A DNA stretch of 64,000 bases from Microbotryum violaceum (taxonomy: Eukaryota): the NCBI GenBank assembly GCA_001244265.2, contig CDLV01000007.1, positions 1,736,001-1,800,000 on the forward strand, in the 5' to 3' direction. Both the position numbers and the translations under genes were made by a program. Under the pieces are notes generated by a model. That model saw only the letters and a list, made by a program, of their open reading frames with translations. It did not search any database and had not been told where the DNA came from. This document shows, one piece after another, positions 165 to 51,000 of this stretch; the first letter of the stretch is position 1; each line of letters opens with the position of its first letter.

Positions 165-4567
<4,403 letters not shown>

Positions 4568-17173: not shown

Positions 17174-20100
17174 CCCGACCCTATAAAAGCCTAACTTTAA
17201 ACCGAGACCGTCGCTGGTGCGATCCCCAGCAAGAGGCGCATGCGGAAAAACGCACTTTTTTTGGCCTTTTTGTCAAAGTTTTTTACCCTATTTTTGCCCC
17301 AAAATGTCAAAATTTCGCATGCGCCTCGGAAACATTATCAAAATGTGTTCTACATGCTCCAAACATCGCTCAAAAGTTCTCGAAAACGCGTTCCGAGCGT
17401 TTGCGGGCGCGCGGCGGCCTATTGAAAGTGGCTTGCGGCGCGCGTCGCTTCGGCTGGTGTTGCGCGTGGCTCCACGCTTCAAACAAGCCTTCCTTGCTTG
17501 GCTGGCTGGCTCGCTGCTTCGTTGTCAGACTTCCTTTTTGCTGAAGTTGAGCTCCTTGTTTCTGCGGTGGCATTTGTGCGGCTTGTAGAGGTTCTGCCGG
17601 CGGCATCTCGCAGGCCGGGCACGCTCCGAAGGGCGGCAAATCTTTGCTCGGCATGTGCGCTTGTGCTGATCAGGCGCTCGTCCGGGTAACATTAGGTAAG
17701 GTCCGAGGTTGAACGATATGTAGTCGTTGACGGGCCTAATGACTCGATGACCTGTCGACCATCAATCATGGGGAACGGCATAGTGCCATCAATGAGGTGT
17801 GTGGAATAGCGTGTTTTTTTGATGAGGCGAAGCTCCTGTACGACGACCTTTGAGAGTAGAACCAACGAGGCGAGCGTATCTTGGTTGCAGTGGTTTGTTG
17901 TCATTCTGCTGTAGATGTGTCGCAATGTAGGACACAATACTTGTGTCAAACGAGAACTTCCTCAACTGCCACTCAAAACAACGCGCGTACCAATTCCGGT
18001 AGACAGCGCTTCTTCTCCATAAACAGTTTGATCGCAGCTGAGTGAATGCATGCCACACTTGAGGCCAAAGCAGATCAGAGATCCAATCTCCAGTGGTGTG
18101 GCAGCGGTTACAGCTACGCAAATAACTGTGAACGCGAGACTCGCCACCTCGATCTTACTTGAGCTTCGTCCTAGGCGTTCAAACGTTCAATGTCAGTCTG
18201 TGTATGCGCCTTAACAGAATGGAACATCCGAGAAAGAGCCGAAAGGGCTTACGTTCACCATCACCATTCTCTGCGTCCCCTTCGTCCTCGTCGCGGTCTT
18301 TTGGCAAAGAGTGGCCCAATTTGGTTGAACGCGCAAAGAGGAATGTTGAGGTGGAAGCTATCTTCCTCTGCGGGGAAGAGTAGTGGGTAACGGAGAGGCA
18401 TCGCAGACGGATGGAGCGAGCTAACGATTTGGTACTTGGGCCGACCATTGGGACATCGATCATCGTGCACCTGGAGAATAAGGTCTTGAGGTCCACGATC
18501 TCCCGTGTTGGTGTCGGAATCGCAGATAAGCATCGCCATTTCGGTGCTCGACGTAGGAAGGTTGTGGGTGCGTCGGTCTCGGCCAGCTGATAGGCAGAGG
18601 CACGGGACCCACTCTTTGGCCTAACCTGCGCGAGCTTTGGCCGATGCAAATTCCCTCACAAAACGGTTGCCGGTACGCACCGTAGAATTGAGCTTGGTCA
18701 AGGTAGATTTTTGTATGCGACTGTCTGCGCCGTCGGGTCCAAGTTGAGTGTCGGTGGCCTCGGCCGGGCAGATGAGCCATGTTTTGGCAAAGGTTGGGCG
18801 CTGATTGATGGCAGGAACTAGGGCGCCGAGAGTGGGCCCAGTCGATGGTAAAGGCGTCAAAAAATCCGAAACATGGGGGGTCCTTGAGTGCCTAGTCGAG
18901 TCTGGTCAAAGTGGGCAGCGAGCGAAGTGAAGACAGCGCGTTCAACTTGTTGTACGACCGGGCATTCTCGCGGAATGCAACCGCTTCTGTGTGGGTCGAG
19001 CTGTTCAGCATGTGGGCCTACGACGGACTGGAGAGACTGACCGGTATCCGACCCTTCAAGCAGCTGTCGATACTCGGGATTGGACCGGAGAGAGGAGGTA
19101 GCTGCACCTTGCCCTGCGAACAGCACGTGCTGTAGTGTCCGGTCGAATTCGACCTTTTGTACTCCCAGTGTCGAGCTTTGTAGTTGATACACACGGCCAT
19201 CTGGGGCCAAGGTAGTCGCGGATGGGAACGTGGGGCTTGAGTGGTTTGAGCTCAATTCGAGGCCTGCGCACTTGCCTCTGCGCAGGAAGAGGTGGTGGTG
19301 GGGCGAGCTCAGTGTCGGTTCGGCCATCGGGCCATCGCGCTGACCACGCTGTCCGTTCTACAAAGCTGTACGGCGGCGCTTATACGGCAATACCAAGATC
19401 GGTTGAGTTGTTGTCATTGTGCGCGGGGAGCTGATTCTGTTGATCGGAGCGGGACAAAGAGGAGAGTCGAGCAGCGGGCCAAGCAGCAGGCGCTCGAGTA
19501 AGCTCGAGCAGGCCCATTGTCTCCCATGGCACGGCACTGGCACGGCGGTACGCTATCCTCGCGCCAGACTCGGCGCGGTTGTCACAAAAATTCGGTGAGT
19601 GGGAGGGAAAGGAAATAATTAGGGAGAGTATCGCGGGACTATTTACAGCCCCTGGAAGATCCTGTTGTTGTTCAGCCCCTAAAACCGGTGTCGCGATGTA
19701 AACAATACACATCACGTGATTGACGGCGCATCCGTAAGCCGCGCCCGCAAAGACAGCGGGACAACCTCTGAGCTCTGTAGAAGAAGTGTCATGCAAACCC
19801 ACGCGTTTGCTATACATTAAATCCCACACAAACTGCTCAATAGTTGGGCACCCCGCCAAAAATCAACAAAATTTTTCCTCCGGCTGTAGCTCGACTTCTA
19901 TGGTGCAGAAAATGCGAAAAGGGTCGTACATGAATAACACAGGCAGGTGCGGCAGACCCAATACTGTACTGGTACATTCACTATAGGCGGCCCAGAGGGC
20001 CGCAACACAGTCAAAAATAGCGATTTTAGGTACATGGTCGCGGATCGACCTTTTTTATATATATAGAGGTAGTAATCTCGGACCGAAGTGAAGCGGAACG

Positions 20101-25244: not shown

Positions 25245-26409
25245 GTGCTAGCGGTGATGGACTTTGAAAAGGCTTACGATCGTCTTTTCCACACGTACCT
25301 TGATGCAGTCCTCTGCGCCGTTGGCCTCGGCCCCAAAGCCCGCCAATGGTACCGAGCGACCTACACCAACCAATCCGCTTTGGTCTTCCTCAACGGTTGG
25401 CTCTCTGCCGCTTTCGACATCCTGTCGGGCGTTCGGCAAAGGTGATCCTCTGGCTCCGTCTCTCTTCGTTCTGGCGATCGAAGGTTTTGCCTGTCAGATT
25501 CGATTGAGAGTCAAGGGCATCGACATTGCGGGCCTCCAAAACATTCGAAAACTCCTCTTTGCCGACGACGCTTGCTGCGCACTCCACAACCTCTCGGACC
25601 TCGACCACCTCAATCGAGCGATCGAGCTTTACGAACGGGCAAGTGCCAGCAAGCTCCGCAACAACAAATATTTCCTCTACCCCCTTGGAGCGTTTCGGGA
25701 TCGGCCGATCGCCCCAGATCTCGGGACCTGGCGTCTCAACGATTCGCAGTTTCGCTACCTTGGTATTCAGGTCGGGGTGGAGATCGCCGAGGATGCGGGC
25801 TGGGAAGATGTCAAGGCCTCGACCATCGCTCGGATACGCTCAATTCCGATGTACCATCTCCCATATGCAGCCAAGTGTTCGATCATCAACATCTACTGCT
25901 ACACAAAGATCCTGTACTACAGCCGATTCCTCCCCGCCCCAAGAGCGTTGTCAAGGAGATCGAGGAGGCCGCCATGCTCGCCATTCACGGTCGAGCTTCG
26001 GATGGTACTCAGCGACGTCCGAAAGTCTCCCGGTCGCGCCTCTGCACCCCTCTCGATCACGGCGGCTTCGGCTTGATTGATCTACCTCGGCGTCTAGCGA
26101 TCGATCACGCGAAGTGGGCCTTCTAGCTCCGGGCCCGGACGGCTGCTTCACACGCCACCTCTTCGACATCCGCATCCACCTCCAGGCACCGAACGAACCA
26201 ACCCCTTTCACCTTGTCCAGACCGGCCCCCAACCAGCATCCTCGCCCTTGGATCTGGATCTGGTAGGCATACTTTTTCCATCCTCCCCCAAAGTGGGAAC
26301 ATGCGGTAAGAAAGACGACAAAACTTCTTCCTGCTCGTTGGGTCCAATACTTCGAAGCCTGGGCATTGGTGACCACGCTTAACCCCCGGAACTCTCCAAG
26401 AGCCAGAAC
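25245..26409 (+). mobile_element. L1/Tx1-clade non-LTR retrotransposon 1, 5'-truncated RT portion (frameshifted)
   Basis: DFEKAYDR, SGVRQ/GDPLAPSLF, LLFADD, FRYLGI, GGFGLIDL motifs. Confidence 0.88.
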
Positions 26410-26693: not shown

Positions 26694-28312
26694 ACGTGCT
26701 CGTGCTGTAGGGCGGGTTCCTTAGAGTGCTGCCAGAACCCGCGTCGATGACCAACCAGAGCCCAGCCCTTCCCTTCGTCCCTCCAGTACAGGTCCGCGAT
26801 CTGCGCAAACTTCGCCACTGCGTCCGCATCGTCATACGCGTACTTGACATCTTCGGCATAGAGTGAAGGGAGGCGAGGCGGAAGTGAGAGCAATTCGGGA
26901 AGCGTCAGGAGTTTGGACTTGATGGTTGGTAAAGTGACCCTGGCCGCTGCAACGACTGCCCCCAGCGCGTCGAGTCGCGGTAAAGCTTCTCGAGCCGAGC
27001 CGTGCTGCTGAAGAACCCTCACGGACTGAAATCGCGGGTCGCAGCGACGAGGGACCTCCAGCTCTCGCGAGCTAGGGGCGCCCAGATCGCCTCGTTCGAG
27101 CCCGCCACAGCATCCCAAAATCGAAGCGCCACCGAATGAACGATGTCGCCGACCGAAATCAAGCCCAAGCCACCGTCCTCCCGAGCCTGGAACACGAATT
27201 CGCGAGCGACGGTATTTCGCCCTGCTCCTCCCCAGACAAAATCCGTAAGTGCTGTCTCCGCCGCCTTAATGAACCATTGAGGCGGTATGTCGAAGGACAG
27301 CACGTGGAGGACCGTCGAGATGATGTGAGCGTTGGCATAGAACACCTTCCCACTCGGCGAAAGTGTCCGGTCTCCAGCGGCGGGGGTCTTGGCCTTGATC
27401 CTGTCAAGAACATGGGTCCAAAACAGTTTCGAGTCACCGTGGCGAAAGAAGGCATAGCCGCACCACTTGAAGCTCTCCCCCTCCTGCACCGTTGGCAGCG
27501 CCTGCGCAGTCTCGTCCCGAAGCCAGTTCGGTCCGAGTGGTAGCACCAGCGTCTTGTCCGTGTTGGTCTTCCCGTTGGTTGCCTCGTACCACGTCTGCGA
27601 CAGCGTTTCCAGCTTCGACAATGCCGCCGGTGACTCCACCACCACCACAGCATCGTCGGCAAACGCGAGATGCGTAAGCTGCGCACGCGGCCCCCCTGGC
27701 CACACCTTCTGCAGGTCGAGCGCGATCCCGCGCCGAACGAGGGCGTCGAGGAAGGGCTGGAACGTGATGTTCCAAACCGGGCACGAGAGGGGATTCCCCT
27801 GACCGAGACTACACAGCAACCGCACCAAGTCCGTGGGGAACCCACTGACAAGGTAGCGCACCCCCAGAGTCTCGGGATCGTAGAGAGCACGCAGCAGCGA
27901 GATGAAACGCTCACCGAACCCAAAAGCCTCAAAAACCTCGAAGATCCAGGCGTGATCGACCCGGTTGTACGCGCTCTGCTGATCCAAAGACAAGAGGGCA
28001 CCCTCGGGGAAAACTTCAGTGCCTAGCGACTTGAGTTTTTCGAGAAGGAGAGTGAGATGACTTCCCGCGTCTGCTGAACGTCTTGATGGCATGAAACCGT
28101 GTTGCGCCGGCGGCAAAAGCTCGCCGAGCACCCCATTGAGTCGCGCCACCAAGACCTTGCTGAGGACCTTGTAGGTCGTCTCGCGCAGTGTGATCGGTCG
28201 ATATGCCCCCAGTGATTTCAGATTGGCCCCCGGTTTGTTCTTGGGCAAAAGCCGCACCAGCCCCTCTGCCAAGGACGCCGTCATTTTACCCCCCTCCCAA
28301 ATCGAGTTGAAC
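26694..28312 (-). mobile_element. L1/Tx1-clade non-LTR retrotransposon 2, RT portion
   Basis: LLPKNK..YRPITL..YKVLSKVL, QHGFMPSR, LDQQSAYNRVDH, GQGNPLS, LAFADD, DGGLGL motifs in ORF 27019-28440. Confidence 0.9.
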
Positions 28313-28339
28313 AACCCTAACCCTCGATTGGGTTGAAGA

Positions 28340-31091
28340 CTGCTGCTGTAACGCCGGACTCGATCCAACTCGTCAAAACCTGTGTTCCCTGTCATTTGGG
28401 AAAAGATGTTGCGCAACGATCCCACGCTGCCGCAGGGCACCGCGCAACCGCTCCCTTTGGTCGAGTCTTCATGGACCTTTGGGGCCCCGGTCCAGTCGTG
28501 GTCATCGCTACCTTTGCGGTGGTATGGATTAGTACTCTTGTTATCGCTGGCTCTGTGGTATCACAGCGAAGAGCAACGCGACACGTGCAATTCAGGACCT
28601 CGTTGCGTTCTCATGCGTTCAGTACCCTGGCTCGTCGTTTCGAACGCTCGTGACCGACCGCGATGGGGAATTCGTCAACAAGCAGTTAGACGGCTGGCTT
28701 GCGTCACGGGGTGTTGTACATGCGCTATCGGCGCCATACAAACACGGTCAGATGGGCTTGCAAGAACGTTCCTGGCGCTCAATCTTTGACAAGGTCCGCA
28801 CCTCTTTGGCCCAATCCGGCCGGCCACTCTTCCTCTGGGAAGAAGCTGCCCACGCCGCCGTGTACGCCCTCAACCTGAAGGCAACCCCTGTGCTTGACAA
28901 CTCAACTCCGGACTTGGTCCTACACGCCTCCGGCGACCCCGTCGCCGAACATCGTCGCCCACGCGGATCCCGCCTCCGTGTTTGGGGCTGCCGGGCGCTC
29001 GTCCCACTACTACCGGAACAGCGCGGGCACAAGCTCGCGCCCCGGTCTCGTCACTGCTTCTTCGTTGGCTACTCGCAGACGTCTCAAGCCTGGCGTTTTT
29101 ACGACCCCGCTCGCCGCAAGGTGTTCGAGTCGTCTCAAGCCACCTTCTTCAAACGGGAATTCGGCCGGTCGCACAACGCGACGGAGATGCGGACGCTACG
29201 ACGATGGACCGGTCCTATGCACAACGACGGTTCGTCCATCGCCGCGGCCCCGAAGACACCATTGACAGTGACGATACAATTTCTGAGGACTCGCTGCCCC
29301 TTCTCAGTCCGCCCCATGTGTCCGTCGCCGAGCAGCCTGTGCCTCCTGTCCACGGCACAGCACCACCACCGCAGGGGCTTGCCTTCAACAACCCGGGACC
29401 AGCCTGGTCAGCTCCGCTCGGCGATCGATCGTCTCGTAATTGTGGACCTCCAGAGCGCCTTGGCGACTTCACGATGGCGGCGACAGCCGTCACCGAGTTT
29501 GCTGTCGAAATCATCGACTTCGAATGGGCCTTCACCACCCGCCCAAGCCCTGACGCCCCGACATATTGGGAAGCAATGTCGAGTAAGGACCGGGAAATGT
29601 GGCTCCTGGCGATCAAGACCGCAAAGGCCGCGCTCGCAGCAAAGGGGACGTTTTCTTTGCTGCTCTTCAATCTGCCACCCGGCACACCCATCATCAAGAG
29701 CAACTGGGTCCTCGCAATCAAACGCGACAGCGAAGGCCGCATTGAGAAATACAAGGCTCATCTCGTTGCTCGCGGCAATATGCAAAAGGCTGGCCGCGAT
29801 TACAAGGAAACCTTCTCGCCCACCGGTCGCGCCGCTTCACACCGGCTCCTGCTCGCTTTGGCTGTCGAGAACGAGTGGGAAACCCGCCAATTCGACGTCT
29901 CTTCTGCATACCTCAATGGGGAGATGGGCAATGTTGCTGTTCACATGGAGCTCCCGGACACGTCGGTTGTCCGCTTGCACAAAACCCTCTACGGCCTGTG
30001 TCAAGCAGGTCGGGAGTGGTACAAGGTCTTCGCGGGCTGGATCGCGTCAATCGGTTTTGTCCGCACCGAAAGCGATCACGCTGTATTTGTCAAGTCCGAA
30101 GGGGCGCGCAAACTGTTCCTCTCCATCCACGTCGACGACGGCCTGCTTACCGGTGATGGCGACCTCGATGGCTTCATCCAACAACTCAAATCTCGTTTCG
30201 AGGCGAAAAGCTCCGACGAGGCGACCTTCTTCCTCGGTCAACGCATTCTCCGGGATGGCAAGACGGGTGCAGCGATCGTTCACCAGCCCCACTTCATCCC
30301 ATCAATCCTGGAAGACCACGACATGGCGGGATGCAGTTCAAGGTCGACACCGATCCCGCTCTACAAGTCACACCTGCGTAAGGACGTCACTTTCGACGCT
30401 TCGACAAAGCCGTGCCGCACGATCGTCGGCAAACTCCTCTTCCTCAGCGGAACTACGCGGCCTGACATTGCCTTCGCTGTATCAAAGGTTGCATCACATT
30501 GCAACAACTTTTTGCAACAGGATTGGGAGGCTTTGTTGCACATCCTCCGATACCTCAAGGGAACCCGAGACGTCGGACTTCTGTTCCGCAAGGCGGAGGG
30601 TGCTCCTCTCCTCAAGGGCTTTGTTGACGCCGATCACGGAGCGGACCCGGAGACTCGTCTAAGTGTCACAGGTTTTGTGTTCCTTTGCGCGGGTGGCGCG
30701 GTCTCGTGGATGTCCAAGCGACAGGCGCTCGTCACCGTATCCAGCACCGAGGCCGAGTACATTGCTATGTCGTTTGCTGCGCGCGAGGGCATCTGGCTTC
30801 GTCGCCTCCTTGCCGAGCTCGGCTTTGCCCAGAGCGAACCAACAAAGCTTCATGGCGACAACCAGTCGGCAATCCAGCTCGCCAAACACCCAGCCTTCCA
30901 TGCTCGTACTAAGCACATCGACATCCACTTTCACTTCATCCGAGACCACATTGCCGAGGGTACGATCGAGATGGTCTGGATTCCCACGAACAAGATGGCG
31001 GCGGATGTCTTGACCAAAGGACTCGGGTCGCGGAAGCACTGGGATTTTGTACACGCGATGGGTTTGGTAGATGCATTGCGTGAAGGGGCGA
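28340..31091 (+). mobile_element. Ty1/Copia pol fragment (integrase-RT-RNase H), frameshifted, no gag or protease
   Basis: CVPCHLGK, VFMDLWGP, TDRDGEF, QMGLQER, LRVWGC, YKAHLVARG, FDVSSAYLNG, LHKTLYGLCQAGREW, IHVDD, FVDAD, SSTEAEY, RTKHIDIHFHFIR, ADVLTKGL. Purine tract at ~31082-31092. Confidence 0.93.
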
Positions 31092-31369
31092 GTTGGAAGG
31101 AGCGACGAGCGGTCGAGGAGGTCTGTGCGGCATACACGCGAGTGCAAGAGGGCCTGAATAGAATTTGATAGGCCTGATCCCGCGCGTGACAAACTGGGTC
31201 TTTTCCTCACGTTTGGCTCTGCATCGGATCAGGTGTGTACTTCGCGTATTCATGCCTCAATGTGTTAAATGATTAACTTTGACATTTGGCTCTGCATCGG
31301 ATCAGTCCATTGTTCAACTCTCGAGACTGAACACACAAAGTGTACCCCGAGTCAGCCTCTATAATAAAA

Positions 31370-32896
31370 GAGAAAAGGGCAAATTGTAAGGCTCGGTTGC
31401 CTTACGCTATTTAACTACCCTTCTGATTTCAATATGCATCTATTGAAATCGTCAGTATTTTGGACCGTGTAACCTAGTTATTTGATCTCTAATGGCTGTA
31501 ACGGATGAATGAACGAACGATAGGGCCATCAGAGATTCGTCTAATCATGCTTAGAGTATCTCTAAGTCTGGTGGTGGCGGGTGTAAGGCTCGGTTGCCTT
31601 ACGCTATTTAAAAGACTGACGATTTCAATAGATTACCCCAGGCCCTTCACAACTAGGTTACACGGTCCAAAAGACTGACGATTTCAATAGATGCATATTG
31701 AAATCAGAAGGGTAGTTAAATAGCGTAAGGCAACCGAGCCTTACACAAATCTGCCCTCGAAAGATAGCGAAAGGACAAAAATGCCCTCGCTTCTTTTCAT
31801 GAGGACAGAAATGCCCTTCTCTAAAGGACCAAAATGCCCTCGGATTCTCGACTTCTGTAATACTTGATATATCAGCTCATAACCACGAAGGTAGGTTCTT
31901 GTAGTCGTTGTGATCAGCACCGTATACTCAGAATCCCCAGAGATGTCGTGAGAAGCCAGTTATCACGGTCGCAAGCCGAAAGCGAGCGATGAGTATAGAC
32001 CGCAGTGAATTTCATATGAAACAGGCCAGCATGCCTTCAACTTGTAGTAACATTGACAGTCCTGACACCTTTTGCTCAGATGCAAATGGTCTATCTATCT
32101 ATCGCATGTAACTCGGTTGTGTCCGGGCCTTTGCAGAGACCACAGATCGTGTCGCGCTTGGACCTCTCGTCCGCACCCTGGATCCTGCGCTTGATCCGAC
32201 GTCGTGTACGCGTGGAGAGATGTGACGGAATGATAATGACACCCTCTTCTTCGCCAGTTGAGTCACTATCGTCCACTTCACCATACCTCATGACGCTCAC
32301 GAGGAAGACAATGCAGCTTCCTTTCGGCCCGAGATGGAACTGGTTGGAGCGGTGTCGCGTAAGTCTGCTCTTGCTGTCGCCGGTGTGCAGCTGCGATCGG
32401 TGACTGTGGGCTTCATTAAAGACAATGATGGTCCAAACACTGCATTCTTCTTTGGAGACAGCAATGGCAGAGAAGGAGCACGGAGGATATTGAACACTCT
32501 TGCTCACGACGCATGTCAGACTTGCGAATGTCGCTGAAACTGGTGATCAAGCGCATATTGATGGCCCGCATCTGTCGATGTCGGGGCGAGAATGCGGAAG
32601 GTGGCCAACGTCGATTCGTGAACTCGCGCGTCTCGACGCGTCGACGATCGATGAGGACCCCTGACTTTGCGACCGTGATAACTGGCTTCTCACGGCATCT
32701 CTGGGGATTCTGAGTATACAGCGCTGATCACAACGACTACAAGAACCTACCTTCGTGGTTATGAGCTGACATATCAAGTATTACAGAAGTCGGGAATCCG
32801 AGGGCATTTTGGTCCTTTAGAGAAGGGCATTTCTGTCCTCATGAAAAGAAGCGAGGGCATTTTCGCTATCTTCCGAGGGCATTTTGTCCTTTTCTC
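31370..32896 (-). mobile_element. Non-autonomous Mutator-like element (MULE) with internally deleted transposase
   Basis: ~230-bp TIRs starting GAGAAAAGG (left TIR 31370-31974, interrupted by the MITE; right TIR ~32667-32896). 9-bp TSD ATAATAAAA (31361-31369, 32897-32905). Internal minus ORF joins a WRKY/FAR1-like CSF..WTIIVFNEAHSH segment to a C-terminal CGLCKG knuckle remnant. Confidence 0.9.
31385..31745. mobile_element. 361-bp fold-back MITE with TG..CA termini, inserted in the MULE left TIR
   Basis: 95-bp TIRs (31385-31479 and 31651-31745, one mismatch seen). 5-bp TSD CAAAT (31380-31384, 31746-31750). A third partial TIR copy at 31582-31611. Confidence 0.92.
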
Positions 32897-33689
32897 ATAA
32901 TAAAATCTAGTAGTAGGTAGGCTGGCCCTCTAGGTCGCTCCGCCGATGGACCACGCGAATCAGTGTCTGCAGCACGCCATTTGGCATTCCTCGAAATCAA
33001 ACGTGGTAGGTGTGGGTACCACGATGTCATTGGCTGTGCTTCGCTTGAGATGTAGCCACTCTCGCATGCTGGACAACGCCCAGCGCATGAAGACAACAGA
33101 ATACCCAAAAATAATTATGTAGTCTTTGATCGCCGAGAGAGTAACCCTGCAAGTTGTGAGTCTGACAAACAATCTGCAGTTGTTCCAAATTAAGTTTGAC
33201 GTTGGACAAGACGAGCTGTTGCAACGAGCACCTGATCACTAGATCCCCGTCAAGCGAATGCGAGGAACCAGATCTGTTCAGTCCATGATAAGTGCACTGT
33301 ACTCGTTCGCCATGTTGGCAAGAGCGACTGCCTCTTGTCAAGCCAAGCTCCCAGATGCTGTCCAATGAGTCGCAATGATGACTCGGCGTCGGGATGCACG
33401 ACTAAGACACGTGAACTTGGAGAGATCGACATCGCCGCAGGGTGGGTGGACATAAATGCCACTTGATACCAATGACTAGTGTGTCGGACCGACTGAGCAC
33501 CGTTCGTGACTGATGAACTACTCCACGGTGGAGGAGGGTTGTACCATGAGCTACTGAGATGTTGATGTTCGCACACAGCTATCAGACGGGCCGAAACGCA
33601 CGCCTAAGTACAGGACTTTGCACTCCGGCCATTCGCCGCCGTTCCGCGCCGGTCTGTGCAGGTCTGTGCCGGCTTTTGCCGGCTGGCTG

Positions 33690-34969: not shown

Positions 34970-43807
<8,838 letters not shown>

Positions 43808-44785
43808 CGTGGCTCCGCCTGTTCCCATTTGGACCCGGAGAACATTCTTGACCTGCCCAATTACAGTCAATGTTATGCCGAGGTCCGGGAGGGGCTTTTT
43901 ACCGGTCGCATGTACGCCAAAGAATATCCCACGCAACTCCCCGTGACTGTTGATGAGCACCCTGGGCAACTTGCACAAGGATTTCCCACACTGGGGAGTG
44001 GGCACCCTGGGTGAAGGTGATCTATGTGCGGTTGTCTGCACCGTCGAGGCTCGCATTTGGAGGCACAGGTCCTCTGGCAAACCTTTTGTGCATATTGCAT
44101 GGGCCTGGTGTAGTTTCCCTGTCTGATGTGCAGCCGATGACACACCAGACCACACCCCCGCCGACAGTCCGCAGTCCCAGGCGGGTCATCACCTCCCCTG
44201 TCAAGTGTTTGGCAATGGACGCCAAGCTGAATGCTGACCTGTGGAGCACCGATGGTCACGAGGATGAGTTCAATCCCGCAATTCCCCACTAAACCTTTCA
44301 TACCAGCTGACGAGTTTGGTTACTTGGGGGTTCAACAGTCACTGACAACAACAATAATCCGGTCCACGCGCAGGCGAAAGAGGCCGCCGACAATGATCAT
44401 GAATGAAGTCTGCTTCGGAACGCGCGGCTGGCTCCTACCGCAGGACCGGAATGGGTCATGCTTGATTGGTCTCAAGCGAATGGCGAGGAAAAAAAGGGTT
44501 CCTGGACCTTGTTTAGACAACGGAAACGATATATATGTCTGAATGAGGATAGACAGAGAAGAAAATTGAAATGAAATGCAGTCAAAATTGAATGTAAGGT
44601 GTATTTAATTTGTTGTTAGAGTCTCTAGCCTTGTCTTGCGGTGGTTATTCGCCTCTAAGTAGGAGGTAGTGCCTATCCTCGGGCCATAGTTGTGAGTGTG
44701 ACTTTATAGAGAGCGCTGGAGGTTCAGGGAGTCGGACTCATCGCCGCCCCGCGGTGCGTTAATCTCAAGCCTTGAGGAAAAAAAA
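43808..44785 (+). mobile_element. Probable degenerate 3' end of a LINE (possibly L1 element 2) ending in an A8 tail
   Basis: Decayed coding-like segment (..VEARIWRHR..), AT-richer UTR-like stretch, A8 at 44778-44785. Orientation fits L1 element 2 once the 8.3-kb inversion is undone. Confidence 0.4.
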
Positions 44786-45069: not shown

Positions 45070-48000
45070 CCCATAGCAAAAAAGGTGTAAGGCCCGTGCG
45101 CCTCGGCCTTAGGAAGAGGGGACGCGCGCCTGGGCACTCTTAGTCTCTCTCCAGCGACTGATACGAGTGTCCAGGTGAGCACAAGGTGGATCAGAAGGCA
45201 TTGTCATACCAGCGACTGATACGAGTGTCCAGGTGAGCACAAGGTGGATCAGAAGGCATTGTCATACCAGCGACTGATACGAGTGTCCAGTGTCAATTCT
45301 ACATACTTTGGTCCTGTGATCCTTGTCGTCGTCGCTGAGGTGTACACTCCGAAGTCGTCATTGGCGACGTGCTGATCAATCAGGCGCTTCCAGGCTTCCC
45401 GGTAACGGTGTGCCGCTCGATAACCCTTCAAGTTCGGTTTTGTTGCTCCGTCCTTCAGCTCGATTCGGTGTCGGACCGGTGATTCATACGTCGAAACCGG
45501 AGGAATATCCCCCGGGAACCGATCCGCGAACTCGACCCGTAGCTTTGCCTCCCGCCGTCGCAACTCCGTCAACTCCGTTTCCCTTTGCTGGACCCCGTCG
45601 ATGCAGGCAATCACTGCACGCCAGTTGATCCGAGCTTTATCGCTTCGTTTGGCATTCCTCGCCGCGGCTCGCTGGGGGTGGGGTCCGAAGACCGGCGCAA
45701 GAAGGTCGATCTTTACGTCAGGCATGGTCGGATGTGGCACCAGGATCTTGTGTGCCGCGAAGTCGATGGTAACCTTGTGTTTTACAAGGAAGTTGAACCC
45801 CAGTACCACTTCCAAGGGCTCCTGCAGTTTAGCCACCTTCAGAATCGTGTGTCCCGCTTCCCATGCGCCATTCTCGAGCGTGATCGGAATCTTTACAAAC
45901 GAGGTAACATGAAACGCGCGTGCTTGGTCTTTGATTGCAGTTTTGACCAATGTAGGAACAGGGAGACGATGCATGACTAACCCCAGTTTCTCAACCACCT
46001 TATCTGCGATAAAGGAGGAAGAGGCCCCAGAGTCAGCAAGTGCCTGCAACGTCTTTGACTTCGTGTTGTTGTGCAGAGTGATGGGAATGGTGGAGATGAA
46101 CTGAGGGGCGTACTCGTTTTCTTCGTCCGTTGAGATGTCGTCTTCTGAGTTTTCCGCAATTTGATGGAGGGTGTCGTTCTTAGCCGCTTTCGCCGTCTTC
46201 TTTTCGAATTCGGCCCACCCCTCCGGGACATCCGGTGCCTGCTGCCAGTTGGCTGTACAGTCGCTCGCGCGGTGATCCGTGTTGATGCGTCTGCAGTTAA
46301 AGCAACCCTCCTGCTCATCGTCCGAGCTGTCCTCCTTTTCCTCTGGCGCGGATGATGGCGCTGGTTGGGCGGTGGATTTCTTGCCACGCGCCATGTTCGT
46401 CCGTTACCGTTCGTTGTCGTTCGTTCGTTCCGCGGGTGTGTCGCTGGCGCACGTGGCAGTGTGCGTCTTTGACCGGTGTGAAAAAAAAAGTTGCGACGGC
46501 GGGAGGCAAAGCTACGGGTCGAGTTCGCGGATCGGTTCCCGGGGATATTCCTCCGGCTTCGACGTATGAATCACCGGTCCGACACCGAATCGAGCTGAAG
46601 GACGGAGCAACAAAACCGAACTTGAAGGGTTATCGAGCGGCACACTGTTACCGGGAAGCCTGGAAGCGCCTGATTGATCAGCACGTCGCCAATGGCCGCC
46701 TTCGAAAGTCGTCATCAGAGTTCGCGTCCCCGGCGTTTGTCATCCCAAAGAAAGGTATGGATAAGGACCCGTCAATCCAACCACGCATGGTCTGTGACTA
46801 CCGAGTACTCAACGAAGGGACGGTCCGAGATCGCACACCTCTACCACTTCCGGACGAGATTCTGTCGGTCTGCTCAAACGCGCGATTCTGGGGGAAGATC
46901 AACATGACAAACTCCTTCTTCCAAACCAAGATGGCCGAGGAAGACATCCGGAAGACGGCGATTGTGACACCGTGGGGATTGTACGAGTGGACGGTAATGC
47001 CAATGGGACTCTGCAACGCCCCGGCAACGCATCAGCACCGAGTCAACGAGGCACTCGGAGACCTTATCGGGAGCGTGTGTTTCGTGTACCTCGATGACAT
47101 CACAATCTTTGCCGACACCTTGGAGGAACATGAACGACGGGTGCGACTAGTCCTGGAGGCGCTGAGACGGGCGGATCTGTACGTATCGCCGAAGAAGACG
47201 GAACTGTTTGCTGCCGAGTGCTTTTTCCTCGGCCACCAGATCACTCGGGAAGGCATCAAGGTCGATCCTGACAAGGTGGAGCGGATCCAACAGTGGCCGC
47301 GACCAAGGACGGTGAAGCAATTGCGGGGATTCCTAGGTCTGGTGCAGTATCTGCGGAAGTTCATCGACAAGCTTGCGGATTTGACGGCGGTTTTAGTCCC
47401 GCTGACACGGAAAGGGGTGCATGTCGACGAAGGCTGGACGGGAGAGCACGACAAGGCGTTTGAGGCAATCAAGTCCTTGGTGGGCAACCTTCCTTCTCTA
47501 CATCCCATTGACCATTCCGACAAGGGCGACCCATTATGGCTGATGACGGACGCGAGCAATCGGGGAATCGGGGCGGCACTCAGTCAAGGAAAGCAATGGC
47601 AGACGGCCATGCCGGCAGGCTATTGGTCACGACAGTACAACCCAGCGGAAGGCAACTATGCAGCCCACGAGATGGAATTGCTTGCAATTGTGGCCGCCCT
47701 TCATCACTGGCGGGCGGACCTTTTGGGTGTTCGATTCAAGATCCTCACAGACCACCACTCCTTGGCGGGCTTCATGAAGCAACCAAGCCTTTCACGACGA
47801 CAAGCTCGATGGACCGAACGACTGGCCGATTACGACTTCGAGATTGTATATGTACGAGGTCCAGAGAACACAGTGGCTGATGCATTGAGTCGTTACTCTT
47901 TCCCGGAGGAACCCACAGCCGGCCGCCAGGCGAGCGACAATGTCAACGTGCTGGCGGAGGCAACTCTCGATCCTGCCTTCCTTTGCAAACTCAGGGACGG

Positions 48001-51000
48001 TTACCGCAAGGACCCGCAATGTCAACAAGCTATCAAGAACATTGACTCAACACCAGGCTACTCAGTCGACAATGGAATCGCACGGTTCGAAGGACGGATC
48101 CTCCTGCCAAAGACGGGGAACTTTTGGGAGGACGCGCTACATGACGCGCATGATGCCGCAGGCCATTTTGGACTACACAAGACGTATGAACACCTACGCC
48201 GCAACTTTATCTGGTCGGGAATGAAGGATGCATGCAAAGATTACGTTGAGTCCTGTGCTGCTTGTCAGACAATGAAGATGCATGGCACCGGTTTTGCCGG
48301 TCGGATCCACAATTTGAATGTGCCTGACCGGCCAATGCGGGAAGTTGGCCTAGACTTTGTCGGGCCACTTGTACCTAGCAATGGTAATGACGCACTGCTT
48401 ACGGTAACAGATCGCCTTTCAGGCTACGTTTGCCTCATCCCCTGCCGCACGACGGACGACGCGACTACCACGGCGGACCGGTTCTTTGAGGGGTGGCATC
48501 GACACTTCGGCATGCCACGAGTGCTGGTCTCCGACCGCGACAAGCTCTTCACAAGCGAGTTCTGGCGAGCGTACATGGGCCAGCTGGGAACGAAACTGGC
48601 AACATCGACGTCTTTCCACCCACAAACGGATGGCCGAAGCGAGTGAACAAATCGGACCGTGATCCAAGTCCTGCAAACAATGGTCAACCGACGGCAAAAT
48701 GACTGGTCAAAGCACTTGGCTACGGTGGAGTTTGTGATCAACTCCAGTATGAACAGGTCGACGGGGAAGACGCCATTTGAAGTGGTACTTGGGTTCACGC
48801 CGGAGCTGACACCGATCACCCCAGTGGAGGGCTCAACCACGTCACAGGCAGTCAAATCCATCGTGGAACAACGTGAAGCAGCGGTTGCGGAAGCCCGAGA
48901 CAATTTGGCAATTGCAAAGATCCGACAGGCCAACCAGAGCAACAAGGCGAGGAAACCGGAGCCCGGGTTTGCAGTTGGCAACATGGTCTTAGTTGACTCG
49001 CGGGATCGACGACTGCGGTACAAGGCCGATGGGGAAGCACGGTCAGCCAAACTCTTTCCCCGGTTTGACGGCCCCTACGAAGTCCTAGCAGCACGACCCG
49101 AAACCTCAAATTACAAGCTGAAGCTCAAGGCGGGGGACAAGTCGCACAACGTCTTCCACGCCTCCAAGCTCCGACGCTGGGTAAAGAACAATGGGGTGGT
49201 GTTCCCAGGACAAGAGGCAACAGAACCAGCGGCCATTATCGTCCAAGGAAACAAGGAGTGGGAGGTAGAACGGATTGTGGACGAAAAGGGGAAGGGGTCA
49301 AGGAAGAGGTTCTTGGTGAAATGGAAGGGGTGGGCAGACAGCGACAACACATGGGAGCCATGCTCACACCTGGAAGGCACCGCAGCGTTGGAAGAGTGGG
49401 AGAGTGGGAAGGCGGGGGGAGGACAAGGCAAGGAGGGAGGGTGTAAGGAGGGAGGGGAGTTTGGTTTAGGTGGTGGAGAGTGTAAGGCCCGTGCGCCTGG
49501 GCCTTAGGAAGAGGGGACGCGCGCCTGGGCACTCTTAGTCTCTCTCCAGCGACTGATACGAGTGTCCAGGTGAGCACAAGGTGGATCAGAAGGCATTGTC
49601 ATACCAGCGACTGATACGAGTGTCCAGTGTCAATTCTACATACTTTGGTCCTGTGATCCTTGTCGTCGTCGCTCAGGTGTACACTCCAACGGGGTGTATT
49701 ACAAAAGGTGGATATTTTGAGGATGGCTTTGGGACTGGGACTGGGACGGGGCCGGGATGGCTGTGGGGTGGCCGAGGGATGGTTGCCATCCTGGGATGAC
49801 CGTGGACAATCACAGCGCACTACCAGAGTTGGGCGCCTTAACTCTGCGACCATCCCGGGACCGTCCTGGGACCGTCCCCGCGACAGGTGCACCAATGCTG
49901 GGACCGTCCGGGGACCATTCCGGGACCCGCACCGATCCTGGGATGGTCCAGGAATTGACAGCGGTCTGGGCACGGTGCTGGGACGGCGCGGGGATAGTCC
50001 TGGGTCCCAGGATGATCCCGAGATGGTGCCAGGATAGTTGTGGTATCGATTAGTAGACAATTTAAATGTTACTTATGCATACTCGTAATGCTTGATTCAT
50101 TTGTAATCACTTTTGCGGTCGTTCTTTCGCTGGAATCGGGTGCGGTTTTCACATGCAATACAGTACAAGGCTAAACAAAAAAGGCAATATGACATCTGCT
50201 ACTCAAAACTGCTCTAGACGCGCATACAAGGCACCTACCGGAAGTGGTGGCTGCGCCCAATGACGGCCAACGCTTCATTCTGTCTGGGGCCAATAGAGCG
50301 TGTCAATGGCCTGCTCTATGTTCGAGACTTTAGTACTAATAGCTAGCAAGTAGCCGAGAGAGAGCGATTGACCCAGACCTGCTGCTATGGTAAGCTGTCG
50401 GAGACATTGTCAGTGAACCGCGAGCGAGTCAGCTGAGCCCCTGACTCCAAGGCTCTGATGTCGAAAAACGACCGAGCGGCTCGAAGATGAACCGGCGGCG
50501 ACTCACGTTGGGCCATGAAGTGCATTTGTATGATTGGTGTTCTGTACGAAACTAGTTGATGGTCAGTGTATGGCCTTGAGCCGTCAACAGCCTGGCGGAG
50601 GCGTAGGAGGCTCACTATGGTGTCCAAACAAATCTAACTACGACAGAGATGGAGAATTGACAAGCCTCAGCAGGAACATCAGCAAAGCTGGAAGCGAAAA
50701 AAGGAGGGAAGAAGAGCTTCAAACGAGGTCGGAGGTGCTGGGACGAGAGGGAGAGACTAACCCGAATCGGCACAGGGGCTAGCCAGTCAGCCCATCTGGG
50801 GAAGGAACGTAAAGCCCACCAGAGAGCAAGTCAGCTAGGCAAAGTATTGCAATCATGGATAGAAGATTCGTTAAGTGGAGAGTGAATCATACCACACACT
50901 GTACAGTCAACAGTCGAATGGCAACGGGCGGGAGTGCGCAGACAGAAGAAGTCCCGCCCATTGAGACAGGAGAACCGTGCACAACAAGGGTGACGACACT

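Follow-up and report, generated by a model that had tools for sequence, protein, structure and literature searches.

TRIMs, the miniature LTR elements, carry direct terminal repeats of about 100-250 bp together with a primer-binding site and a polypurine tract, and DIRS-like elements insert with no target-site duplication. The long-armed Drosophila FB, Tetris and Tm1 elements belong to cut-and-paste superfamilies that have other termini and make duplications of 7-9 bp, and to our knowledge none of them is built from LTR starts. Two papers on integrase-derived DNA transposons (PMC2836005, PMC6839031) give the Ginger1, Ginger2, TDD and GingerRoot groups TIRs of 40-270 bp and TGTNR..CA ends like those of Gypsy LTRs, with duplications of 4 bp (CCGG or CCGT) for Ginger1, 4 bp at AT-rich targets for Ginger2, 6 bp for GingerRoot and 5 bp for TDD-4 and TDD-5. 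As to aberrant products of reverse transcription, two further papers report that a retroviral integrase can carry out concerted integration with the same LTR end on both sides, giving a duplication of the correct size (PMC2615609), and that a hairpin at the 3' end of nascent DNA acts as its own primer, which yields dead-end fold-back products (PMC6088434). A narrow literature search found no description of a natural genomic insertion of two inverted LTR starts (a U3/U3 mini form); the main text of PMC10502011 does not mention MITE, foldback, Ginger or chromovirus, and that of PMC5381629 does not mention MITE, TRIM or solo.

The 361-bp fold-back element reported here lies in a window of Microbotryum violaceum DNA, by which we mean the whole 64,000-nucleotide stretch that was analysed, and it can be set against each of these systems. 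Like aberrant LTR-retroelement cDNAs, it has TG..CA ends, a target duplication of the size seen at a neighbouring chromovirus, an internal junction of polypurine tract and U3, and short-overlap joints with a strand flip; unlike them, it has U3 starts at both ends and shows neither a U5 nor a primer-binding site nor a coding part. With the Ginger/TDD elements it shares the termini and, at 95 bp, a TIR length within their range, and its 5-bp duplication CAAAT fits, by length, TDD-4 and TDD-5 only, whereas that group is defined by an integrase-like transposase free of reverse transcriptase and RNase H and lacks an internal tract/U3 junction. The resemblance to TRIMs lies in a tiny, non-coding body, in ends of the LTR type, in a 5-bp duplication and in a tract that precedes the downstream repeat, yet the long repeats of the fold-back element are inverted and its direct repeat spans just 30 nt. 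Long inverted arms, inner sub-repeats and the lack of coding capacity are in turn common to the Foldback elements and fold-back MITEs (Drosophila FB, Tetris, Tm1).

The element extends from 31385 to 31745 and is present in a single copy, as judged by a sensitive BLAST comparison of the element with the 64-kb window. Its left arm (31385-31479, plus strand) corresponds to positions 1-95 of a U3-type LTR start and its right arm (31651-31745, minus strand) to the same positions inverted, 95-1; the two arms, each of 95 nt, are paired at 94 of 95 positions (99%), with the sole mismatch at arm position 73 and a spacer of 171 nt between them. The element begins with TGTAAGG and ends with CCTTACA (TG..CA, or TGTAA..TTACA when read further inward). 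The arm is rich in hairpins, as it opens with a terminal one, TGTAAGGC-tcggtt-GCCTTAC in the left arm, and holds a second palindrome with a 10-bp stem. Folded as single-stranded DNA, the 361 nt reach -138.4 kcal/mol against -35.3 +/- 3.7 in shuffled sequences, and 0 of 100 shuffles equalled this value.

A copy of CAAAT abuts the element on either side (31380-31384 on the left, 31746-31750 on the right), both flush with its ends, and the site rebuilt from them aligns with a paralog. The host is a non-autonomous Mutator-like element of about 1.5 kb (31370-32896) with TIRs of about 230 bp and a 9-bp duplication, ATAATAAAA, at 31361-31369 and 32897-32905; the fold-back element lies within this host, 15 nt from the left end, and the host TIRs (31752-31974 against 32881-32667) are 93.7% identical. 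Once 31385-31750 is removed, the left repeat of the host aligns uninterrupted across the insertion point with the right-repeat paralog, and the 20 nt that span the rebuilt point match a local 20-nt sub-terminal tandem unit at 17 of 20 positions. Because the paralogous right repeat is uninterrupted, insertion and duplication are genuine: the 361 bp were inserted as one unit with a 5-bp duplication of CAAAT. An assembly artefact was rejected on the grounds of the imperfect palindrome, the duplication and the uninterrupted paralogous site. The preliminary description of this locus had proposed 95-bp TIRs, TG..CA ends and a 5-bp target-site duplication, and all three are confirmed by the pairing of the arms, by CAAAT on both sides and by the paralog.

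The surroundings are themselves crowded with repeats. The TIRs of the Mutator-like host carry sub-terminal tandem units of 20-30 nt, and in one public sequencing run (X1) six contigs join the outer flanks of this host, which shows unoccupied sites in a host sequence that is itself repeated. Immediately upstream of the Mutator-like element there is a copia-type pol (28533-31168, plus strand), with RVT_1 reverse-transcriptase frames beside it at 27019-28560 (minus) and 25258-26076 (plus). A repeat of about 1.9 kb, unclassified, occurs in two direct copies 17.5 kb apart (18117-20035 and 35619-37384) that are 73-87% identical. Between about 25 and 50 kb the window is a nest of transposons, and as a whole it is eukaryotic and transposon-rich.

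The interior of the element is best followed against a 112-nt LTR start, for which the reverse complement of 31634-31745 serves as the reference. On this scale the order is 1-95, a 102-nt non-coding stretch ending in a tract, 1-30, the reverse complement of 77-54 and the reverse complement of 112-1. At joint 1 (31472-31479, plus strand) the end of the arm and the start of the middle piece, as the latter is found in other genomes, have an 8-nt overlap in common, ACCTAGTT, and the joint is placed there on the basis of contigs from four runs in which the match to the middle piece begins only at 31472/31473. The middle piece proper (31480-31569, plus) is non-coding, with stop codons in six of six frames, and in other genomes it stands upstream of a polypurine tract and has other sequence before it. 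There follows the polypurine-tract-like GGTGGTGGCGGG (31570-31581, plus), which adjoins an LTR start, as the junction alignment with the two chromoviruses discussed below illustrates; this start is an internal third copy of arm nucleotides 1-30 (31582-31611, plus) in direct order relative to the left arm. Both the third copy and the tract before it had been overlooked in the preliminary description. At joint 2 the strand flips over a 2-nt overlap (AA), and the sequence continues with a second, 24-nt copy of 31669-31692, situated at 31610-31633 (plus) as the reverse complement of arm positions 54-77. Joint 3, at 31633/31634, is a slip-back by which these 24 nt are duplicated, and it is followed by LTR positions 96-112 (31634-31650, minus), which are contiguous with the right arm both here and in contigs from two other organisms. 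The longest direct repeat in the fold-back element measures 30 nt, and all of its long repeats are inverted. Inspection by eye found no primer-binding site after the left arm. ARAGORN (30000-33500) and Rfam (31100-32100) returned no matches around the element, and a tRNA- or small-RNA-derived origin was dropped for this reason.

The terminus that opens each arm recurs at the LTR starts of two neighbouring elements, here called chromoviruses A and B. The 8-nt TGTAAGGC occurs nine times in the window against 1.14 expected, a count that 0 of 100 shuffles reach; three occurrences belong to the fold-back element, four to LTR starts (38411 and 43634 in A, 45086 and 49481 in B), and two lie elsewhere. 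These last two, on the minus strand at 4110 and 13647, were set aside as chance-like, having neither hairpin nor repeat partner. At the LTR starts of A and B the terminus is followed within 4-8 nt by its complement, with one mismatch in the stem of the B 5' LTR, and the stems of A and of the fold-back element are identical over 7 bp. Taken one at a time, the terminal hairpins are only modestly better than chance, as equally good folds arose in 2 of 200 shuffles for the element, 26 of 200 for A, 3 of 200 for the B 3' LTR and 28 of 200 for the B 5' LTR. A hairpin common to three families may reflect a selected structure or shared descent, being compatible with both.

The likeness extends across the junction of tract and LTR, which can be aligned among A, B and the fold-back element. 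Positions 31570-31589 are identical at 18 of 20 sites to 49469-49488, the tract and LTR start of chromovirus B. Since the internal copy is preceded by a tract in the manner of the B junction, the arm appears to be the U3 start of an LTR family; the support for the name U3 comes from the resemblance to the junctions of A and of B and from a single contig, which belongs to a small run and crosses a 31-nt repeat. A polypurine-tract/U3 junction inside the element is a mark of reverse transcription and plus-strand priming. The shared 8-nt terminus with hairpins at the LTR starts of A and B had been pointed out in the preliminary description, and the LTR starts are as given there; its account of a non-coding element made of two inverted U3-type ends is likewise supported.

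Chromoviruses A and B are both Ty3/gypsy elements with reverse transcriptase, RNase H, integrase and a chromodomain. In A, pol spans 39258-42851 and the chromodomain lies within 43030-43587, and the 3' LTR (43634 at least to 43808, plus strand) has the same 8-nt start and hairpin. In B, pol spans 46301-48646 and the chromodomain lies within 48647-49507; its 3' LTR (49481-49703, plus) has the same 8-nt start, is directly preceded by GGTGGTGGAGAG and ends in GTATTACA. B, 13 kb from the fold-back element, is flanked by a 5-bp duplication, AAAGG, at 45081-45085 and 49704-49708, and no target duplication was found for chromovirus A. The ends and the 5-bp duplication of the fold-back element are of the kind left by a Gypsy-type integrase, and on this point the preliminary description is supported.

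B is also rearranged. Its 5' LTR is cut at 45350, 16 nt short, and fused to an inverted 216-nt copy (45350-45565) of pol 46489-46704; the protease is encoded by the minus strand (45249-46403). Even so, AAAGG is intact, and the two LTRs agree to 99%. That B is rearranged and still has an intact duplication implies that inverted cDNA rearrangements get integrated in this genome. The gag of B is seemingly missing. In both chromoviruses the 5' LTR has an extra internal tandem unit relative to the 3' LTR, of about 60 nt in A (38411-38646 compared with 43634-43808) and of 58 nt in B (45086-45350 compared with 49481-49703). The LTR homology of A stops at 38646/43808, with a run of T continuing on the 5' side; possible explanations are a truncation of the A 5' LTR like that in B and an origin of the two LTRs from separate insertions.

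Beyond the window, 23 listed public sequencing runs were sampled with 28 words of the element, and the contigs of four of them (X1, X8, X13 and X20) were aligned to 30900-32300. Part of the element is contained in 20 of the 23 listed runs, from four organisms and eight studies, with a maximum word share of 0.61. No second fold-back copy was present among the contigs of the four runs; since k-mer contigs are interrupted at inverted repeats and lose rare variants, little weight attaches to the failure of any run to contain the whole element. The word depth of the arm, in sums that are not copy numbers, is 36,313 in X8 (31652-31698) and 2,253 in X1; long contigs have depths of about 122 and 40. 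The middle piece (31472-31610) forms a separate contig with depths of 566 in X8 and 122 in X1. Across four related organisms the arm is highly repetitive, which fits LTRs or solo LTRs and fits a large fold-back family as well. In a scan of metagenomes the exact 23-nt terminus had no matches, and the 14 loci retrieved with the tract plus the 8-nt terminus (two positions open) were dismissed as chance, none of them having a hairpin or LTR context.

A contig of X13 opens with 87 letters unlike the arm, passes through the middle piece and the tract and then enters the arm, which it follows for 112 nt in direct orientation; an ordinary LTR element has this layout at its 3' junction. In X8 and X20 the middle piece likewise has other sequence before it. 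Regarding the suggestion that the 95-mer might also occur as the 5' end of a direct-repeat LTR, the X13 contig has the arm in direct orientation right after the tract, and a direct LTR pair was not recovered. A contig of X20 matches the element exactly up to 31745 and continues for 249 letters, so that this terminus is a true end at another site as well; the middle-piece contig of X1 ends exactly at 31472. All four runs depart from the window in an identical manner at 31504, 31522 and 31530, and the two arms of the window copy differ from each other at 1 of 95 positions. Judging from these comparisons, the window copy may derive from an unsampled source lineage, may be a changed copy, or may have arms that were kept alike by conversion. 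Contig starts near 31651-31653 were not adopted as structure, as a common variant at 31680 alone explains them. In the run contigs (31680, 31664) many arm copies read A instead of G at 31680, which on the opposite strand turns TCG into TTG, and the arm copy in the window retains all four TCG and five CGA sites. A passage of PMC5381629 ascribes this type of change to a RIP-like defence of Microbotryum.

Taking these observations together, the 361-bp element is on balance probably a by-product of the replication of an LTR retrotransposon that led no further: an aberrant cDNA, bounded by a U3 end on either side, which a chromovirus-type integrase inserted. Supporting this reading are the 5-bp duplication at a checked site, the tract/U3 junction, the X13 contig, the joints, the duplication and rearrangement of B, the presence of one copy in 64 kb, a word share of at most 0.61 in any of the 23 listed runs, and the published evidence for concerted insertion of two identical LTR ends and for self-priming by hairpins. 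The internal junction and the microhomology joints argue for an origin by reverse transcription rather than by cut-and-paste transposition. Both outer ends stop at LTR position 1, as if synthesis had begun at such an end and later run off one, and the 8-nt overlap, the second pass through tract and U3, the strand flip and the 24-nt slip-back resemble template switches. The enzyme, the order of the switches and the single occurrence are inferred. The source would be a third chromovirus-type family, absent from the window, whose LTR begins with the 95-nt arm. A plus strand primed at the polypurine tract, with its 5' end at LTR position 1, could have jumped back at the 8-nt overlap, recopied the tract and the U3 start, and flipped at the 2-nt overlap, with copying then continuing in reverse until the 5' terminus of a plus strand was reached. 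In a variant of this route, two incomplete cDNAs with one U3 end each could have been joined inside by the host. A Gypsy/chromovirus-type integrase would finally have taken both identical TG..CA ends and inserted them into the Mutator-like terminal repeat, making CAAAT. Counting against this scheme, three joints are a lot for a single event. For the putative source family, neither a full-length element, nor a direct LTR pair opening with the arm, nor an arm-linked integrase was recovered.

The preliminary description favoured a different account, in which the locus is a member of a mobile, non-autonomous, MITE-like fold-back family whose TIRs are U3 ends and which has been moved repeatedly by a Ginger/TDD-like transposase or a borrowed chromovirus integrase, and which we regard as unlikely. 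The TGTAA ends, the 95-bp TIRs and the 5-bp duplication do fall within the Ginger/TDD range as given in PMC2836005, the arm depth is very high in the contigs of four organisms, the X20 match gives way to other sequence at the last base of the element, and the middle-piece contig of X1 ends at 31472 as if two contexts met there. Ordinary LTRs, however, predict the high arm depth and the shared terminus equally well, and a second fold-back copy was seen neither in the window, nor in the run contigs, nor in the metagenome scan. A cut-and-paste element would not be expected to contain a tract/U3 junction and microhomology joints; the integrase of a retrotransposon is unable to excise DNA, and the fold-back element has neither a visible primer-binding site nor the direct LTRs needed for a second round through RNA. 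No Ginger-type gene was found in the window by a Pfam scan of 22 of its 48 stop-to-stop frames of at least 200 aa: an integrase gene free of reverse transcriptase is missing from these frames, and rve matches in the window occur only together with reverse transcriptase, in the pol of A and B. In PMC2836005 the sole fungal case of Ginger is one vestige in Malassezia. It is unlikely that the arm is the TIR of a multi-copy fold-back family spread across several Microbotryum species and moved repeatedly by an integrase-type enzyme. MITE in the sense of a repeatedly moving family has found no support so far, given one copy in the window, a word share that never exceeds 0.61 in a run and the marks of retrotranscription inside; a one-off aberrant cDNA integration, the very case that the preliminary description had named as speaking against its proposal, is now the better reading, short of proof.

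Two further explanations start from known retroelements. The locus could be a miniature, TRIM-like LTR element or a solo LTR whose ends are by nature long and inverted, and it could be in its original state or have undergone an inversion or a deletion once inserted. In keeping with this, the 164 bp at 31582-31745 begin right after the tract, have perfect 30-nt inverted ends and could pass as a small LTR. The direct repeats, however, amount to just 30 nt and a primer-binding site was not seen; in X13 and X20 the arm continues beyond position 30 as the arms of the window do and not as the 164-bp unit does; and a later inversion would require a breakpoint exactly at the border between element and duplication, all of which makes this explanation improbable. 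A derivative of a DIRS-like tyrosine-recombinase element, with inverted terminal repeats and an internal region that repeats the termini, is suggested by the inverted ends and the internal copy of the terminus, which recall the DIRS layout. We consider it very improbable, as the clean 5-bp duplication and the TG..CA ends are unlike an insertion by recombinase and as the internal copy follows a tract in common with chromovirus B.

The consequences differ with the origin of the element. Should the fold-back family be real after all, it would be a living link from LTR retrotransposons to integrase-derived DNA transposons and a new way of moving for non-autonomous elements, and its terminal hairpin would be both the recognition site of the enzyme and the cause of the fold-back. 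If instead the element is an aberrant cDNA that was integrated once, it is a natural and datable case of an integrase inserting DNA that bears the same LTR end twice, an event that, as far as we found, is otherwise apparently confined to test-tube assays. For annotation it would follow that tools label as a MITE what is in truth retrotransposon debris. On the same reading, accidents of reverse transcription would supply raw material for integrase-derived DNA transposons such as Ginger.
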